Shown: in pieces, positions 9,680-37,098 of the stretch | How positions within the stretch are numbered: the first letter of the stretch is position 1 | Layout of the letters: each line of letters starts with the position of its first letter | Assembly: GCA_026986575.1 (NCBI GenBank) | Contig: JALSOH010000006.1 | Span: 192,001 to 256,000 of the forward strand | From: Thermoproteota archaeon | Lineage (GTDB): Archaea > Korarchaeota > Korarchaeia > Korarchaeales > Korarchaeaceae | Reading direction: 5' to 3' | DNA: 64,000 nucleotides | Program-made: the position numbers and the translations under genes | Notes under the pieces: generated by a model | Told to the model about the DNA's origin: nothing | What the model saw: the letters and a program-made list of their open reading frames with translations, nothing else | Databases searched by the model: none

Positions 9680-9747
9680 CTAATTTTCCACTGTTTTTGA
9701 ACCGGAGAAAGCTTAAGCTTATGTAATTGACTTCACTTGCAACTCCT

Positions 9748-10302
9748 ATGATACTGTCTGACAGCAGCATACGCTCCCTTATAGAATCGGGTGAGCTTTC
9801 CATAGATCCCCTGTACAACGATACGATCAGAGAGAACGGGGTCGACATGAGGATAGGACCCGAGATTGCCTTCCCGATAGTCACAGGAGAGGTAATAGAC
9901 CCGATCAGGGACAATCCCGCCAAGCACTTCTCGGTGAGGGAGATCCCCGATGAGGGGATAATAATACCGGGAAACACCTCTATCCTTCTAGTCACCGAGG
10001 AGTACGTGAGAATGCCCAAAGATGTCGCCGCCCTATGCGGACTCCGCTCCTCTATAGCCAGGTGGGGTTTCGTCGCCCCTCCCACGCTGATAGATGCTGG
10101 CTTCGAGGGTCAACTGACGATAGAGGTCATGTGGACCAGACCGGCGCCCGTGAAGCTGTATAAGGGCATAAGATTCCTTCATGTGGTGTTCTTCAGGGTG
10201 GAAGGTGAAGTGGAGAGGCCGTACAGCGGGAGCTACCAGGGGCAGAGGGGAGTTACACTCCCCAAGAAGCTCGAGAGCATCCGGTCGAGCAAAAAGGTTT
10301 AA
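9748..10302 (+). CDS. dcd: dCTP deaminase
   Basis: MILSD, RSSIARWG, IDAGFEGQLTIE and Y.G.YQGQRG. Confidence 0.95.
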   Translation: MILSDSSIRSLIESGELSIDPLYNDTIRENGVDMRIGPEIAFPIVTGEVIDPIRDNPAKHFSVREIPDEGIIIPGNTSILLVTEEYVRMPKDVAALCGLRSSIARWGFVAPPTLIDAGFEGQLTIEVMWTRPAPVKLYKGIRFLHVVFFRVEGEVERPYSGSYQGQRGVTLPKKLESIRSSKKV

Positions 10303-10598: not shown

Positions 10599-13235
10599 AT
10601 GCCAGTCACTAAGGTGGTTAAGAGGGACGGTAGAATCGTCCCATTCGATGCATCTCGCATAAAGAGGGCCATAGAGGGGGCTATGCGAGAGGTAGGGCAT
10701 TATGATGAAGCTAAACTTGATAAGGTAGTTAAATATGTGCTTAGAGTTATAAACAGGACTTTCAGCGACGAGAATCCACCCCATGTGGAGGAGATCCAAG
10801 ACATAGTAGAGCTAGCCCTGATGAAGTACGACCTCTTCGATGTTGCCAAGGCTTACATCCTCTACAGGAAGGAAAGGGAGAAGATAAGAAAGGAGAAGAT
10901 GGCAATTCTCGGTAAAGATTACGTGGATGATGTGGATAAGAGGCTCTCCCTCAACGCCATAAGGCTGCTAGCAGCCAGATACCTGCAGAAGGACCCGGAT
11001 GGGAAGCTGAAGGAGGACCCGAAGGGCATGTTCATAAGGGTCGCCTCCTTGGTGGTGATCCCCGACGTGCTACACGACCCCAAGGTGTTTGATAAGGACG
11101 GTGGTCAGCCAGTTCACCCAAAGGAGGATTTCTCGCCGGAGGAGTGGGAAGGGAAAGTAGGACTTAAGAACGGCCATCCGGAGGATCACCTAGCTCCGAC
11201 GTTCACTTGGAACCGCTACCACTTGGAGAGGATGAAGGCGCTCTACGATGGACTGAATGAGCAGGGGAAGATGAAGGTGAGCTGGTCTCAGTTCTGGGAG
11301 ATGCTCCTTCGCGGAGAGTTCGATCACCACTACCAAGACTTCCTTAACTACTACAGGCTGATGGTCGATCTGAGGTTCCTGCCCAACTCCCCGACGCTGT
11401 TCAACGCTGGCACCAGGTTAGGTCAGCTCTCGGCTTGCTTCGTCTTGGACATAAACGATAGCCTAGAGTCGATAATGAAGGCCGCCACAGATGCGGCAAT
11501 GATATTCAAGTCCGGCGGAGGAGTGGGGATCAATTACTCCAAACTCAGGCCGCAGGGCGACATAGTCAGGTCAACCGGAGGTCAGGCATCTGGTCCAGTC
11601 AGTTTCATGAGGATAATAGATGTGATCACGGATGTGGTGAAGCAGGGCGGGCGCAGAAGAGGAGCCAACATGGGCATACTGGAGGTCTGGCATCCCGATA
11701 TATGGAAGTTCGTGGAGGCCAAAGCTAAGCCCGGTCAGTTCGAGAACTTCAACATCTCGGTGATGATAACGGGGGACTTCTGGCCCAAATTCGAGTCCGG
11801 AGAGGAGTACACCCTCATCAATCCCAGAAATGGCGAAGTTTGGGATACCCTGAACCCTAGAGAGTTCTTCAGGAAGATAGCCGAGATGGCCTGGCGTACC
11901 GGAGATCCGGGTGTGTTGTTCTCTGATAATATAAATAAAAGAAATATAATGAAAGAGGCATTAGGTGAAATAAAATCAACTAATCCTTGCGGTGAGGAGC
12001 CTTTATATCCATATGAGTCATGTAACCTAGGGAGCATTAATTTATACGCTTATATAAGGAGAGAGAACGGACTTATATCTTTCGATTGGGACTCTTACTC
12101 TGAGGACGTAAGACTGGCCCTTCGTTTCCTCGACAACGTCATCGATGTGAACAAGTTCCCCATTCCGGAAATAGAGAGGAACACCAAGGCCACGAGAAAG
12201 GTCGGCCTCGGTTTGATGGGGTTGGCTGACGTCCTCTTCGCGCTGGGAATACCGTACAATAGCGAGGAGGGCTTCGATTTCATGAGGAAGGTGGCCGAGT
12301 ACCTCACATACTTCTCCATGAAGGAGAGCGTTGAAATGGCCAAGGAGAGAGGAACCTTCCCACTTTATGGGAGATCAGGATACGTCAAAGGGGAAATGCC
12401 GTTTGAGGGCTTCTACCATCCGGAGTGGTGGCACCTAGACTGGGACGCCCTTAAGGAAGAGGTCATGAGGTACGGGATCAGGAACGCCGAAGTAACGACG
12501 ATAGCGCCGACTGGTTCCATCTCCATGATAGCCGACGTTTCTTCGGGAATAGAGCCTCAATTCGCGCTGGTGTATGAGAAGAGGGTATCCGTTGGCTCTT
12601 TCTTCTACGTGGATAGGGAGCTGGAGAGGCAGCTCAAGGAGAACGGCCTCTACCACGAGAAGCTTCTTAAGGAGATTGCCGATAATGGGGGTTCGCTTCA
12701 GGGGATAGAGCCTCCCGAGGGAAAGGAGGAGCTCTTCAAGAGGATGCAGCAGGTGTTCCTCGTGGCCTACGACATACCGTGGTGGGATCACGTCAGGGCC
12801 CAAGCGGAGATAGCCAAGTGGATATGCGCGGCGGTGAGCAAGACGATAAACATGCCCAACTGGGTGTCCGTCTCGGATGTTGAGAAGGCCTACCTGTTCG
12901 CCTACAAGCTCGGATTGAAGGGCATCACCGTCTACAGGGACGGCTCGAAGGCGGCCCAAGTTCTCGTGACCCCCTCCCAGAGGAAGGGCGAGTATGTGGT
13001 GAAAACAGAGAACCAGACGCTGAAGATGATGGAGATGCTAGGGATAGAGCTCCCCCAGCTCAAGAAGGCTCCTGTCGAGGAGAAGGCTCTAGCTCAGCCA
13101 GTCTTCAAACCTCCGTCACCACAGCCAGCGAATCATGTGGAGAGGTGTCCCGAGTGCGGCAGCACTCGGCTGGTTTACAAGGAGGACTGCGTCACCTGCC
13201 TGGACTGCGGGTGGTCGGCCTGCGTGGTCTCGTGA
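10599..13235 (+). CDS. nrdJ: Class II (adenosylcobalamin-dependent) ribonucleotide reductase with ATP cone; no intein
   Basis: VVKRDG ATP cone, PNSPTLFNAG, SACF, TNPCGE, CNLGS, TIAPTGSIS and SKTIN motifs; C-terminal Cys cluster. Confidence 0.97.
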   Translation: MPVTKVVKRDGRIVPFDASRIKRAIEGAMREVGHYDEAKLDKVVKYVLRVINRTFSDENPPHVEEIQDIVELALMKYDLFDVAKAYILYRKEREKIRKEKMAILGKDYVDDVDKRLSLNAIRLLAARYLQKDPDGKLKEDPKGMFIRVASLVVIPDVLHDPKVFDKDGGQPVHPKEDFSPEEWEGKVGLKNGHPEDHLAPTFTWNRYHLERMKALYDGLNEQGKMKVSWSQFWEMLLRGEFDHHYQDFLNYYRLMVDLRFLPNSPTLFNAGTRLGQLSACFVLDINDSLESIMKAATDAAMIFKSGGGVGINYSKLRPQGDIVRSTGGQASGPVSFMRIIDVITDVVKQGGRRRGANMGILEVWHPDIWKFVEAKAKPGQFENFNISVMITGDFWPKFESGEEYTLINPRNGEVWDTLNPREFFRKIAEMAWRTGDPGVLFSDNINKRNIMKEALGEIKSTNPCGEEPLYPYESCNLGSINLYAYIRRENGLISFDWDSYSEDVRLALRFLDNVIDVNKFPIPEIERNTKATRKVGLGLMGLADVLFALGIPYNSEEGFDFMRKVAEYLTYFSMKESVEMAKERGTFPLYGRSGYVKGEMPFEGFYHPEWWHLDWDALKEEVMRYGIRNAEVTTIAPTGSISMIADVSSGIEPQFALVYEKRVSVGSFFYVDRELERQLKENGLYHEKLLKEIADNGGSLQGIEPPEGKEELFKRMQQVFLVAYDIPWWDHVRAQAEIAKWICAAVSKTINMPNWVSVSDVEKAYLFAYKLGLKGITVYRDGSKAAQVLVTPSQRKGEYVVKTENQTLKMMEMLGIELPQLKKAPVEEKALAQPVFKPPSPQPANHVERCPECGSTRLVYKEDCVTCLDCGWSACVVS

Positions 13236-13245
13236 GGGAGCTTAG

Positions 13246-13764
13246 GTGAGCGAGGGGCTGGTACACCTCTATACAGGAAACGGCAAGGGGAAGACCACGG
13301 CGGCTTTTGGCTTGGCGTTGAGGGTAGCGGGAAGAGGAGGTAAATCCCTCATAGTTCAGTTCCTGAAGGGACTACCGACGGGGGAGGTCATGGCGGTCAG
13401 AAAAATACCCGAGATAGAGGTAAGGAGGTTCGGCAGCGAGAGATTCGTAGATCCAAAAAGGCCAACAGAGGAGGATGTAGCCATGGCCAAGAGAGGTCTC
13501 AAAGAGGCCGCAGAAGCCATGTCCTCCGGCAACTACAGGTTGGTGGTCTTGGACGAGGTGAATGTGGCCGTGGCCTTCAATCTAATCGACGAGAGGGAGG
13601 TAATCTCTGCTGTCAAGTCGAGGCACCCACGCACAGAGGTCGTCCTCACTGGAAGGTACGCTCCTCCCTCTTTTTATGAATTGGCTGACTATGTGACCGA
13701 GTTCAAGGAGGTGAAGCATCCCTTCTCCTCCGGGATCCCTGCAAGGGAAGGTATAGAATTTTAA
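13246..13764 (+). CDS. cobO: Cob(I)alamin adenosyltransferase (CobA/CobO/BtuR type)
   Basis: YTGNGKGKTTAAFG, QFLKG, LDE, LTGR and KHPF. Confidence 0.95.
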   Translation: MSEGLVHLYTGNGKGKTTAAFGLALRVAGRGGKSLIVQFLKGLPTGEVMAVRKIPEIEVRRFGSERFVDPKRPTEEDVAMAKRGLKEAAEAMSSGNYRLVVLDEVNVAVAFNLIDEREVISAVKSRHPRTEVVLTGRYAPPSFYELADYVTEFKEVKHPFSSGIPAREGIEF

Positions 13765-32829: not shown

Positions 32830-33459
32830 CTAGATGTACTTGAATAGGTTGAGGTAGGCCTCGGTGCTGAGCTCTATCACCCTGCCTTCGTCCACGTAGG
32901 TCACAAGGATCCCATTAAGCTTGGCCTTCCTCAGTAGCTCCATGGGTATGGGTGGATTTCGATAATACCTGTCCAGCAACTCCTTCCACTTCCTCAGCTC
33001 TATATCCGACCTTGCATGGGGCGGGGTGAGGAGGAAAGGAGGTATCTCCATTAGGTAGGTGGGGGGTGCCGCTAAATAGAATCTATCCGCGTACTGGCTA
33101 TACCTAGCGATCTTGCTGGCTATCCTCGCCCTGCAGAAACTGTCGGGATCCAAGGCATGGTCCGGAGGCACGAAGCCAGTTTCCACCTCTACTATCACCT
33201 TTCCCCCGTTCGTGCCCATTACATCGCATCTGAGGTCGTCCACTTTAACCTCTACATCCACCTGATATCCCTTTATGATCAGGTGAGCCGCTATCACCAG
33301 CTCCATGGCCGAATGATTTATCTTCACGGCCCCAGCTATGTAAAGCTCCGTCAGCCTGTCGATGAGCGGTCTCAGCCTGCCAGCCGGTGGACCCCCTCTC
33401 CCCTCTATCCTCTTGGCCAGCTCCTCTAGGTCGGACCTGAATCTCCGGGTATCCGGCAC
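32830..33459 (-). CDS. Conserved archaeal hypothetical protein with a PD-(D/E)XK-like motif
   Basis: VDVE....CDV......IVEVETG pattern. Confidence 0.65.
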   Translation of the reverse strand: MPDTRRFRSDLEELAKRIEGRGGPPAGRLRPLIDRLTELYIAGAVKINHSAMELVIAAHLIIKGYQVDVEVKVDDLRCDVMGTNGGKVIVEVETGFVPPDHALDPDSFCRARIASKIARYSQYADRFYLAAPPTYLMEIPPFLLTPPHARSDIELRKWKELLDRYYRNPPIPMELLRKAKLNGILVTYVDEGRVIELSTEAYLNLFKYI

Positions 33460-33645
33460 CTGTGATCGACCTCTAAATAGGTATTAAGGCAGCGCGATGA
33501 CACTTTTTAATAAATCAATGACTATCCACTGGCAGGTGATTTCATTGAATGTGATGCAAACCGTTCTCTAAACAAAGAAATTATTTAGGATGCTTCCCAG
33601 AGTGAGGATGAAAATAGAACAAGAAAGCAGGGAGGTCTAAAGGTA

Positions 33646-35634
33646 ATGGCCCATAATGAAGCTCAAGGTGAGGAGAAATGCCTTAGTCTTGTACTGATCA
33701 AAGATATATTGTCGTTGAAAGAAGGCATTTCAAGGGCATTATTTGGAATAGTTGCCATCTATTACGCAAAAGTTTACTTTGAACTCTTAAAGAAAATTGT
33801 TCAAAATGGAATAAGTTTAGATATTATTTCTAAGATAATTATGGAGGTAAGAAATTTAATTTTAATAGTTGTATCAATTATATTTTTAACAGTTTTAATA
33901 AGATGTTTTATGATAAAGATAATAAGAAAGAACTTCATCTACAGAGCGGTAGTAGCAATTTATTTACATTTTTATTATGATTTTAAAATTAAATTATTGA
34001 GTTACCTTATAAACAAAATAAATACTCTAAGTAATGATGTAAGACAGTCTCAGTGGGAATCATTAAGATATTTGAAGATGTTTGTACTAACTTTGCTTGC
34101 GAGATTGATAGGACTTGGCGAATCCGAATTTATTAGAGAAGCTGCTATCTACATAGAAGAAACTAAAAAATTTAAAGAGAAATATTCATCTAATGTAAAA
34201 AAATATCTTCCTACAGTGCCTATGTCGTCAGAAGCCGTGGGAAAACCACTGCTAGTAAAAACTAATCACTTAAAGTATGGCTTCTACTGGAAGCCTTTTG
34301 ATTATACAATTTCACTTCTTTATGATGGGGCTCAACTTTTAAATATGATAAGTAATAAGGATAAGGAGAGAAGAAGAATAATATTAGAAGTGAATTTGTG
34401 TCAAGAAAAGAACGGACTTTTATCAATTTATAATAACGCAGGTAAGGTATTTATTTACGAACATTATGTTAAAAGATGTCTTGAATCGAGGGACTGTAAG
34501 AAAAAATTGGAGAGGCTAGCCAGTGAAATACATAACAGGATCAGAAAACCAATAACGTGGAAAGGAATTTATAAATTCCCTAAGGAATCACTCCCACTTC
34601 CTCTAAGATGGGCTTCAGGAGGAGTACTTCCCATAGCTTATTATAAAGAAAATTTTTGGTTTGTTCTCTTCTACCGGAACTTCTCCCCAATGTGCTGGAA
34701 TTTACCGTTGGGGGCATCAGAGACATTCAGTGAGCAGGAGAAGGTGGATATCATGTCTACCCGTGAAAGTATGGAGGAGATTTTACTAGTAGACAATGAG
34801 CCAGACAGGGGAAGTACACTTACACTAAAACCTATTTTCCCCCGAACGTCTCTGGAATTTAGATACATAAATGAATATATATGGCCAAAAGTTTATTCAT
34901 ATTTAAAAGAATATGCTAAACTCAGGCACCAACAAGACGGTTTTTCTATAAAGATACCTGAGGATCTCGGAGGGATATCAACTCCTGCTGGGGAGATATC
35001 CACTCCATATGATGTCAAAATTAAGTACAGATCCAAAAAAGAATCAATGATCCAAAATGTTTTATTTATAATAAATCCTGAGGAATTAGGAATAGAAATT
35101 ATACGACCCTTTATTTTCCTTATGAACGATGAGGACTATATACTTTGGGGGGAGATATGGAAGGGCGCATCAGCTATACCTAGAACTCCCGTACTACTTC
35201 TATCAGTTGATTATGTGCAAAATATCATCAAAAAGGGGGGAAAGTTTGGTGATAAATTGAAAGGTAACTATAAGAGATGCTCAGGATGTAGGTCGATTAT
35301 TAAAATTCCTAAGGAAAAATATGTATTATTCTACAAGGACATTCTCTTTGCCAAAGAGAGATTAGAGAACCTGAAGAGGCTGCCTAATCCGTCTTACAAA
35401 GAAAAACTTGAGATAAAAAGCCTTCGATGGCATAGTAGTTACTCAAAACAAATAGATTCGCTAATAAATTCAGCTAGAAAAGGCGGAGACCTAACTCTTA
35501 GAGAACATAGTATATTCATGAATTTCTGCCCGACTACTTGGAGATCTTTTGAAATACTTTACACTATCGAACGTTTAGATAAAAACTTTTTAGATAACAT
35601 GCTGAAAATCTGGTTTCTTGAGCGATTTCATTAA
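33646..35634 (+). CDS. AT-rich, horizontally acquired hypothetical protein: N-terminal hydrophobic helices plus a Nudix-like region
   Basis: Long intact ORF in strongly AT-rich DNA; WNLPLGASE...RESMEE resembles a degenerate Nudix box. Confidence 0.7.
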   Translation: MAHNEAQGEEKCLSLVLIKDILSLKEGISRALFGIVAIYYAKVYFELLKKIVQNGISLDIISKIIMEVRNLILIVVSIIFLTVLIRCFMIKIIRKNFIYRAVVAIYLHFYYDFKIKLLSYLINKINTLSNDVRQSQWESLRYLKMFVLTLLARLIGLGESEFIREAAIYIEETKKFKEKYSSNVKKYLPTVPMSSEAVGKPLLVKTNHLKYGFYWKPFDYTISLLYDGAQLLNMISNKDKERRRIILEVNLCQEKNGLLSIYNNAGKVFIYEHYVKRCLESRDCKKKLERLASEIHNRIRKPITWKGIYKFPKESLPLPLRWASGGVLPIAYYKENFWFVLFYRNFSPMCWNLPLGASETFSEQEKVDIMSTRESMEEILLVDNEPDRGSTLTLKPIFPRTSLEFRYINEYIWPKVYSYLKEYAKLRHQQDGFSIKIPEDLGGISTPAGEISTPYDVKIKYRSKKESMIQNVLFIINPEELGIEIIRPFIFLMNDEDYILWGEIWKGASAIPRTPVLLLSVDYVQNIIKKGGKFGDKLKGNYKRCSGCRSIIKIPKEKYVLFYKDILFAKERLENLKRLPNPSYKEKLEIKSLRWHSSYSKQIDSLINSARKGGDLTLREHSIFMNFCPTTWRSFEILYTIERLDKNFLDNMLKIWFLERFH

Positions 35635-35661
35635 AAATTAGACTAGCTAACCAGCAAAGGG

Positions 35662-37098
35662 TTGAATGCGTTGATCCTGACCAAGATAGTAGCGACAATA
35701 GGCCCAGCTTCCTCTACCATGGAAGTGGTAAAGGGGATGATAGCGGAGGGCATGTCCGTTGCTAGAATGAACTTCTCCCACGGCACCCTAACTGAGAAAG
35801 CCAACCATATAGACTTGGTTCGTAGAGCCGCTCACGACCTTGGACTGAGGATAGGACTTATGTCCGACCTTCAAGGACCGGAGGTCAGAACCCACATGGG
35901 GAGGAAGGAACTGAAGGTAGAGGAGGGGGATGTGGTAACGGTCAGCGGGAAGGAGGGCTTGGGAGAGATCAAGATAAAGCCTTCCAGCGTCCTCAGAAAC
36001 TTGGCAGAGGGAGACGAGTTATTCATCGATGAAGGTAGGATCAGGCTCGTAGTGGAGGAAGTCGGAGATGTCCTGAAGTGCCGGGTGGTGCATGGAGGAG
36101 TGATAAGGGACAAGAGGTCGGTACACGCCTCGAAGCCCTTTGACCTCAAGGGGATTACCGAGGAGGACAGGTTAGCCATGAAGCTCTCCGTGGAGAAAGG
36201 AGTGGACTTCATAGCCCTCTCCTTCGTCAAGACGGTGGAGGACATTATAGAAGCTAAAGAGTTCTTGAAATCGCTGACTGACGATCCTCCCTCCCTAATA
36301 GCGAAGATAGAGACAAGAGAGGCAGTTGAGAACGCTAAGGAAATTCTGGAGGAGTCCTATGGGATAATGGTGGCCAGAGGAGATTTAGGCGTTGAGCTCC
36401 CGCTGGAGGAAGTGCCCCAGATCCAGAAGAAGCTGATAAGACTGGCTAACGAGGCCGCCAAGCCCGTGATAACCGCCACCGAGATGCTGGAATCCATGAC
36501 CTCGAGCCCCGTCCCGACTAGGGCGGAGGTAACTGATGTGTACAACGCCATAATGGATGGGAGCGACGCCGTCATGCTGTCAGCGGAGACTGCTGTTGGT
36601 AAGTATCCCGTACTGAGCGTCAGGTGGATGAGGGTCATAGCAGAGAGCGCTGAGCGTTCTCTAACCCCGAGGATGGACTTTCCCCTCACTTCGAAGGCTG
36701 CTTTCATAGGTAAGGCGGCCGTGGAGGCGGCGGAAATGCTGAAGAGCCCCGTCATACTGTGCTTCACCTACACGGGATTCACCGCTAGGCATGTGGTGAG
36801 GCACAGGCCCAAGGCCAGAATACTAGCTCTCCTAAGCAGGGAAAAGACTAGAGGTTTACTGACCCTGAGCTGGGGAGTCGAGAGCCTCCTCGTCTCCCAA
36901 GACTTGGACGAGGCCGTGAGGCAAGCGGTTAACCATTGCTTGGAAAGGGGGGCGTTGAACATTGAGGATACCATAGTTGTGACGTTCGGACATCCTCACG
37001 GAAGGGCCAAGACGAACTCGCTCAGGATACTCGGCGTCGAGGAGGTGCTTCAAGCGGGGGAGCCGAATCCCTCCCCCACCACCGGCCCGCCATCGTAG
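35662..37098 (+). CDS. pyk: Pyruvate kinase
   Basis: TKIVATIGP, RMNFSHG, AKIE, MVARGDLG and PTRAEVTD. Confidence 0.97.
   Translation: MNALILTKIVATIGPASSTMEVVKGMIAEGMSVARMNFSHGTLTEKANHIDLVRRAAHDLGLRIGLMSDLQGPEVRTHMGRKELKVEEGDVVTVSGKEGLGEIKIKPSSVLRNLAEGDELFIDEGRIRLVVEEVGDVLKCRVVHGGVIRDKRSVHASKPFDLKGITEEDRLAMKLSVEKGVDFIALSFVKTVEDIIEAKEFLKSLTDDPPSLIAKIETREAVENAKEILEESYGIMVARGDLGVELPLEEVPQIQKKLIRLANEAAKPVITATEMLESMTSSPVPTRAEVTDVYNAIMDGSDAVMLSAETAVGKYPVLSVRWMRVIAESAERSLTPRMDFPLTSKAAFIGKAAVEAAEMLKSPVILCFTYTGFTARHVVRHRPKARILALLSREKTRGLLTLSWGVESLLVSQDLDEAVRQAVNHCLERGALNIEDTIVVTFGHPHGRAKTNSLRILGVEEVLQAGEPNPSPTTGPPS

Follow-up and report, generated by a model that had tools for sequence, protein, structure and literature searches.

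An A/T-rich codon patch at an empty intein insertion site in a korarchaeal ribonucleotide reductase gene: a probable homing scar

How does a gene that holds no intein come to carry, centred on a point at which inteins insert, a run of codons whose third positions depart from those of its own genome? This question is raised by nrdJ in a korarchaeal genome (G000), of which we analysed a window of 64,000 nucleotides (contig JALSOH010000006.1, positions 192,001 to 256,000). The gene is present in a single copy in this genome, and close protein relatives are annotated as adenosylcobalamin-dependent ribonucleotide reductases (RNR) from Korarchaeota. Pfam domains for the barrel, the all-alpha part and the ATP-cone are found in its 878-residue open reading frame (ORF, 10599-13235) and no insert interrupts them, just as the first-pass annotation of this DNA had stated. 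nrdJ sits between genes for a dCTP deaminase-like protein (window 9727-10302) and a corrinoid adenosyltransferase (window 13246-13764), a neighbourhood that fits a B12-dependent enzyme. Two origins had been proposed for the patch, either a co-conversion tract that an A/T-rich donor left behind before the intein was precisely lost, or a recoded allele immune to the homing endonuclease. The relevant features are collected in Table 1.

Table 1. Positions of nrdJ, its intein insertion sites and the A/T-third-position tract in the window, and of three further inteins in genome G000 (contig:positions).
Feature	Position	Strand	Remark
Intein-free nrdJ (878 aa), ATP-cone-bearing class II (B12) ribonucleotide reductase	10599..13235	+	
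GGG/V site, internal control	11523..11525	+	Val or Ile at +1 in 25/25 korarchaeal alleles
Left arm of the A/T-third-position tract	11922..11987	+	A/T-ending codons 20/22; left edge sharp
Empty intein insertion point TNP/CGE, before the Cys codon	11987..11988	+	Occupied in 6/18 congeneric nrdJ genomes
Right arm of the tract	11988..12056	+	A/T-ending codons 15/23; G009 and G020 show this pattern 3' of their intein
Right tail of the tract, fading	12057..12125	+	A/T-ending codons 12/23 vs 7.8 expected
Other intein in G000	C9:185422-187977		Flanks without comparable A/T excess
Other intein in G000	C6:417798-420269		Flanks without comparable A/T excess
Other intein in G000	C4:103173-106007		Flanks without comparable A/T excess

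The patch in nrdJ is real. The counts given earlier proved exact: 20 of the 22 codons before and 15 of the 23 codons from Cys464 (TGC at 11988) onwards end in A or T, and genome codon usage with the same amino acids would lead one to expect 7.9 and 8.2, respectively. The comparison stretch at 12720-12785 was recounted with the same outcome (2/22) and is itself unusually G/C-rich, the GC3s of nrdJ being 0.67. The best-scoring segment comprises about 200 bases (11922-12125) and is longer than the span noted before. It had been left open whether the dip falls within the normal variance along the gene; it lies far above chance, and two scans, which used mechanically called ORFs and excluded gene ends, both placed it first among internal anomalies of the genome. 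When 45-codon segments were compared with their flanks, the patch ranked first among 761 ORFs with 300 or more codons (0.50; next 0.35; 99th percentile 0.28), and after correction for amino acids it ranked first among 968 ORFs of at least 250 codons (z 6.5; next 5.25). One contig from run X2, which belongs to a second study, covers the empty, patched allele (11862-12496) with four differences, and the patch is therefore not an assembly artefact. No second copy of it was found in genome G000.

The insertion point lies before CGE in nrdJ, a position which we take to be the RIR1-b site. The allele name RIR1-b is listed without a position in the part of the source consulted (PMC4071816). That inteins insert here had been claimed for archaeal RNR at large, and the site is indeed an active one within the genus of the window itself. 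nrdJ is present in 18 of the 20 congeneric genomes, and the suggested check of sister genomes revealed six in which an intein occupies exactly this point, 11 in which it is empty and one in which the assembly does not extend across it. The inserts are inteins of 393-395 residues at exactly the same codon boundary, with Cys1, a His-Asn end and Cys at +1, and they contain the Pfam domains Intein_splicing and LAGLIDADG_3. Elsewhere in the family, outside this genus, the site is filled in G044 and G045 and empty in G021, G043 and G047. Both aspartates of the LAGLIDADG motifs are intact in six of the nine korarchaeal inteins (G009, G020, G041, G019, G008 and G044), and acidic residues are altered in those from G003, G014 and G045. 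The inteins of G009 and G041 are 90% identical and the exteins of the two genera, with that of G021 used in place of G041, 75%; the intein spreads across species and genera on its own, not with its host gene. Two contig ends of G041 (end of L043, start of L044) carry between them one nrdJ allele that is empty and one with the intein, which suggests a population in mid-invasion. No intein-bearing loose end at the site was present among the contig ends listed alongside the X2 allele, and contigs drop rare variants. Close to the site, the patch-free empty allele of G002 (L006) departs from residues that are otherwise conserved (K to S at -5; downstream, E to Q as well as E to G), and it shares other residues with the intein-bearing G019.

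The same gene offers an internal control. The other common RNR insertion site, GGG, had been said to have Val at +1 and thus to be unable to support splicing; Val was confirmed at 11523, and the site is non-invadable. It has no A/T patch: 17 codons out of 45 end in A/T in the window gene, and the second genus, where four G/C-rich alleles were counted, has 2-5 out of 45. In Thermococcaceae, the residue is Thr in 42 of the 42 loci that cover it. The patch is not a property of every intein either, since the three other inteins of G000, which judging from their motifs sit in HerA-like, KaiC/RadA-like and RtcB hosts, have no such flanks. Nor was a patch detected at other intein host motifs in the genome (seven motif matches).

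Further information came from two sisters at 97% amino-acid identity, G009 and G020, to which G000 is sister on the flanks (support 100/99). Both hold the intein inside the same patch, with 20/22 and 15/23 A/T-ending codons in G009 and 19/22 and 17/23 in G020, and the left arm of the window allele is 95% and 92% identical to the end of their respective N-exteins. The patch is thus not peculiar to the empty allele, and the idea of a recoded, immune allele is not borne out. The intein itself has a GC3 of 0.64, near that of the host, and shows no A/T richness. Between G009 and G020 it differs at only 4 of 1185 bases, compared with 6 of 135 in the patch (p 1.5e-4), and the patch differences reach to within 7 bases to the left and 33 bases to the right of the site; the patch therefore predates the last spread of the intein, and the co-conversion that accompanied this spread was short. 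All three carriers of the G009-type intein lineage have the junction CCC/TGT, whereas the window reads CCT/TGC, and the TGC state is found in 16 of the 17 empty korarchaeal alleles. Composition, age and junction codons alike speak against a tract left by precise loss of the present intein, and that proposal did not hold. Read from these sequences, the simplest explanation would be that the window allele escaped invasion in the present intein round. The tract is shared with element-bearing alleles, those of G009 and G020, and its age and composition differ from those of the resident intein. Flank age and intein age are separable, which calls for caution against taking such patches as proof of intein loss.

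A more general picture emerged when the korarchaeal alleles were viewed as a set. A patch z of at least 3.6 (-22 to +23 codons) was obtained for 10 of the 25, eight of them empty and two occupied, including four of the second genus with a background third-position A/T content (A/T3) of 0.07-0.11; no patch, with or without an intein, was seen in G002, G014, G015, the G017 group, G045 and G047. The patch edges vary among alleles and nest around the insertion point, and in G011 six A/T codons of the window type, together with the same Val-to-Ile change, lie between G/C codons. In 23 alleles, the slope of local A/T3 on host A/T3 is 0.07 at -15 to +15 codons (r 0.06) vs 0.75-1.11 in 11 other segments of nrdJ, z values and slopes being overstated as kin are not independent. 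Rank agreement with gene-wide distances is likewise lowest at the site (0.23-0.27 vs 0.42-0.90 in 45 other segments). Over about 45 bases to the left and to the right of the site, the link to host codon usage and to gene-wide distances is lost.

Tracts that span the site are common to different species even without an intein. The clearest case is provided by G005 and G007 (L152 and L155), both empty, in which 285 bases across the site (-60 to +224) contain a single mismatch; the two identical runs of 149 and 135 bases are the longest in 18,639 aligned bases of 84% identity, the next being 71. A G005-type protein also occurs with a different intein (P0014). A history discordant with that of the flanks, which had been suggested for the window allele, was found for the alleles as a set, which form a mosaic centred on the site, and for the G005/G007 tract, but the G000 patch has the same nearest relatives as its flanks, and the flank clades remained compatible with the 144-base patch in AU tests (p 0.20, 0.37 and 0.12).

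On the stem of G000, G009 and G020, 13 fixed differences fall on 89 patch sites vs 50 on 1402 sites elsewhere, and all 13 run from G/C to A/T, compared with 26 of the 50 far away; terminal changes in the patch are too few for a direction. The stem shows one conservative amino-acid change in the patch, and the protein stays clade-typical. Changes on the left arm affect both strands (C>T and G>A) and hence do not stem from one deamination burst, the strand asymmetry of which is not seen in G000; in the second genus a tendency to G>A on the left and C>T on the right is confounded by amino-acid make-up. Most changed sites are two-fold codons, so any A/T-rich donor would yield the same transitions.

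Such a donor lineage, as postulated in the first-pass annotation, was not found in the viral, metagenome, genome and protein sets searched. Viral contigs gave no match in a pattern scan and one distant match (36%) in a protein scan. A pattern scan of metagenomes returned eight loci, namely five korarchaeal-type alleles, two A/T-rich genes with unlike amino acids and one frameless locus. In the genome collection, the DNA pattern of the left-arm amino-acid signature occurs at only five loci, all of them G/C-rich, from the same clade and 83-92% identical to the window gene. None of 120 protein matches beyond close relatives shares more than 20 of 24 left-arm residues; the best left-arm match in 125 alleles, G009 and G020 aside, is 0.82, and the best left-arm identity in another phylum is 0.76 (top 30 among the 75 matches from 401 genomes). 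The korarchaeal nrdJ genes sampled have an A/T3 of 0.55 at most and the patch one of 0.78; members of the nrdJ subfamily with 0.74-0.80 occur in other archaea.

Other groups differ in how strongly their sites are marked. The 30 empty alleles of the other phylum have no patch (mean z -0.05), and their A/T3 slope at the site is 0.97. In a Thermococcus-type genus, sampled with 20 empty and 20 occupied of 54 matching genomes, z is positive in 35 of 40 alleles (means 1.6 empty, 1.7 occupied), and in the remaining Thermococcus-type genera (20 of 34 matching genomes) it averages 0.6. Among 60 Thermococcaceae, the A/T3 slope is again lowest at the site (0.72). In the first-named Thermococcus-type genus the junction codons track the intein, TGT being found in 10/20 occupied vs 1/20 empty alleles and CCG in 12/20 vs 1/20. 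In four of 133 genomes (L181-L184; G115, G136, G141 and G132) a short A/T-rich tract encoding QSAKNEPI, amino acids found nowhere else in the family, abuts the site on the left; the site is empty in all four genomes and in eight of eight protein clusters; this allele is a candidate for a resistant one, and no donor of the tract was found.

What, then, produced the patch? Import, rewriting in place, selection for immunity and strict loss all link it to homing, and on balance we lean towards import: the patch would be a foreign repair tract at a repeatedly cut homing site, a recombination hotspot at which flanks move between species. The homing endonuclease of the intein would cut empty alleles at 11987/11988, and repair would copy short, nested tracts from any available nrdJ DNA, that of other species included; these tracts would not reach beyond the conserved region around the active site. 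In the common ancestor of G000, G009 and G020, such a tract, A/T-rich and derived from a donor outside the sample, may have gone to fixation, and the present intein would have invaded G009 and G020 later with very short co-conversion. The window allele would be a still-empty target with an older scar, not the product of losing the present intein, and in this sense possibly the ghost of an earlier homing cycle; for this allele, the "ghost" and "immune" readings in the form in which they were first put are not supported by the comparison of sequences. Less probable is the alternative that the clade's own flanks were rewritten in situ towards A/T, either by repeated cutting and error-prone repair of resected strands or by hitchhiking, which would override weak selection for G/C codons. 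It gains from the exclusively A/T-ward stem changes in the patch, the retention of clade-typical amino acids, the fruitless donor searches and the observation that A/T-richer hosts have no clear G/C-rich patch, and Repar and Warnecke (2017, PMC5378118), in the part drawn on here, have two models, of which one is mutagenic repair at homing sites. In the same vein, we regard it as rather doubtful that homing endonucleases rewrite their own target, driving the flanking codons to A/T without a donor while leaving the intein untouched; if true, a codon scan of a single genome would map sites under homing attack, including unknown ones. The near-host composition of the intein counts against rewriting, the G005/G007 tract and the Thermococcus-type tract with foreign amino acids require transfer, and the edges are sharp and nested, as illustrated by the G011 codons. 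Import is favoured over rewriting because the changes affect both strands, because the edges are blocky and because transfer is seen in other alleles.

Selection for nuclease-resistant empty alleles, in which protective synonymous departures spread and the intein adapts later, could account for the empty state of eight of the ten most strongly patched alleles, for the sharing of the G005/G007 tract between empty alleles and for the consistently empty QSAKNEPI alleles. It appears improbable, however, in view of the invasion of the same patch in G009 and G020, of the nearly identical flanks of the empty and occupied alleles in G041 and of the intein in the G005-type protein; moreover, the patch extends 66 bases to the left, and the targets of intron-encoded nucleases are given as 20-30 bases in the relevant part of PMC5378118. 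We consider it quite improbable that the window lineage carried the intein of G009 and G020 together with its co-converted flanks and then lost the intein precisely. The sister relationship and the common patch would agree with such a course, the intein starts with TGC, so that deletion at the junction could leave the TGC of the window, and precise loss belongs to the homing cycle as portrayed in the part of PMC1654191 considered. Yet the patch is older than the spread of an intein that is not A/T-rich, both junction codons of the window differ from those of the carriers, and its TGC is the usual state of empty korarchaeal alleles. Very remote, finally, is a function of the patch as an internal or antisense promoter or as a translation pause at the catalytic domain. 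TATA-like words do occur on both strands in G000, and two sigma-70-type matches were found vs 0.7 expected, a consensus that is not of the archaeal promoter type. The words are not conserved among patch-bearing alleles, though: none occurs in the second genus in the four alleles with strong patches, and the left one is missing from G020, G011, G005 and G007. The same protein motif is encoded without a patch in the 30 alleles of the other phylum and in several congeners.

Import into a cut homing site invites comparison with better-known systems. In fungal mitochondria, exon polymorphism is raised beside mobile self-splicing introns, and, for the part of the paper considered, the cases agree in disturbed synonymous sites at a homing site, in donors that were not found, in variants that do not strictly match the presence of the element and in the pair of mechanisms that come into question, namely co-conversion from a foreign source and mutagenic repair (PMC5378118). 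Here, by contrast, the element is an archaeal intein, and a directional codon shift is visible in a single genome and extends across species and genera. The group I intron in angiosperm cox1 leaves a co-conversion tract that is retained in rare intron-less alleles, according to the portion of PMC3192709 consulted. Common to both cases is a synonymous tract, foreign in cox1 and probably so in nrdJ, that has nested lengths and persists at the homing site of empty alleles. The cox1 tract, as outlined in that portion, lies 3' only and is tied to the presence of the intron, whereas the nrdJ patch is two-sided, strongest on the 5' side, for the most part a feature of empty alleles and of greater age than the resident intein. 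In haloarchaeal MCM genes, which likewise house archaeal LAGLIDADG inteins, a flanking residue is co-converted and invasion-resistant alleles exist, and a splicing-blocking residue at +1 protects the site much as in GGG/V of nrdJ (PMC10643990, in part). Resistance is a block at the protein level there, the nuclease tolerates synonymous changes, and a compositional tract is not described in the part of that paper considered. The RNR intein of Thermococcaceae sits at the same position before CGE, and that of P0207 is 45% identical to the G009 intein; unlike in that system, the window allele is without an intein, and the Thermococcus-type A/T excess is much weaker. Measured against a classical co-conversion tract, the patch abuts the insertion point, has nested lengths and is shared with element-bearing alleles, but differs in that neither an age shared with the resident element nor a known donor goes with it. 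A literature search that covered mostly open-access main texts turned up no work describing tracts of codon composition at intein sites.

In natural archaeal genomes, some 45 bases to either side of an intein site thus appear to form a gene pool common to different species and genera, and a scan of one whole genome can pick it out as the leading codon anomaly. The locus also provides a compact test of a question posed in the part of PMC5378118 covered here, namely whether diversity at homing sites derives from foreign templates or from mutagenic repair, and the Thermococcaceae constitute a cultured, tractable group with the same site and a weaker signal.

Two further compositional features of the window deserve mention. 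Another block of A/T-ending codons lies in the ATP-cone part of nrdJ (window 10692-10769, 18 of 26 codons); it is present in G009 and absent from G011, G005, G021 and G043, and it fell outside the genome scans because gene starts were excluded from them. Farther downstream, an island of low GC content extends over window positions 33001-36000 (0.36-0.42 vs about 0.54).
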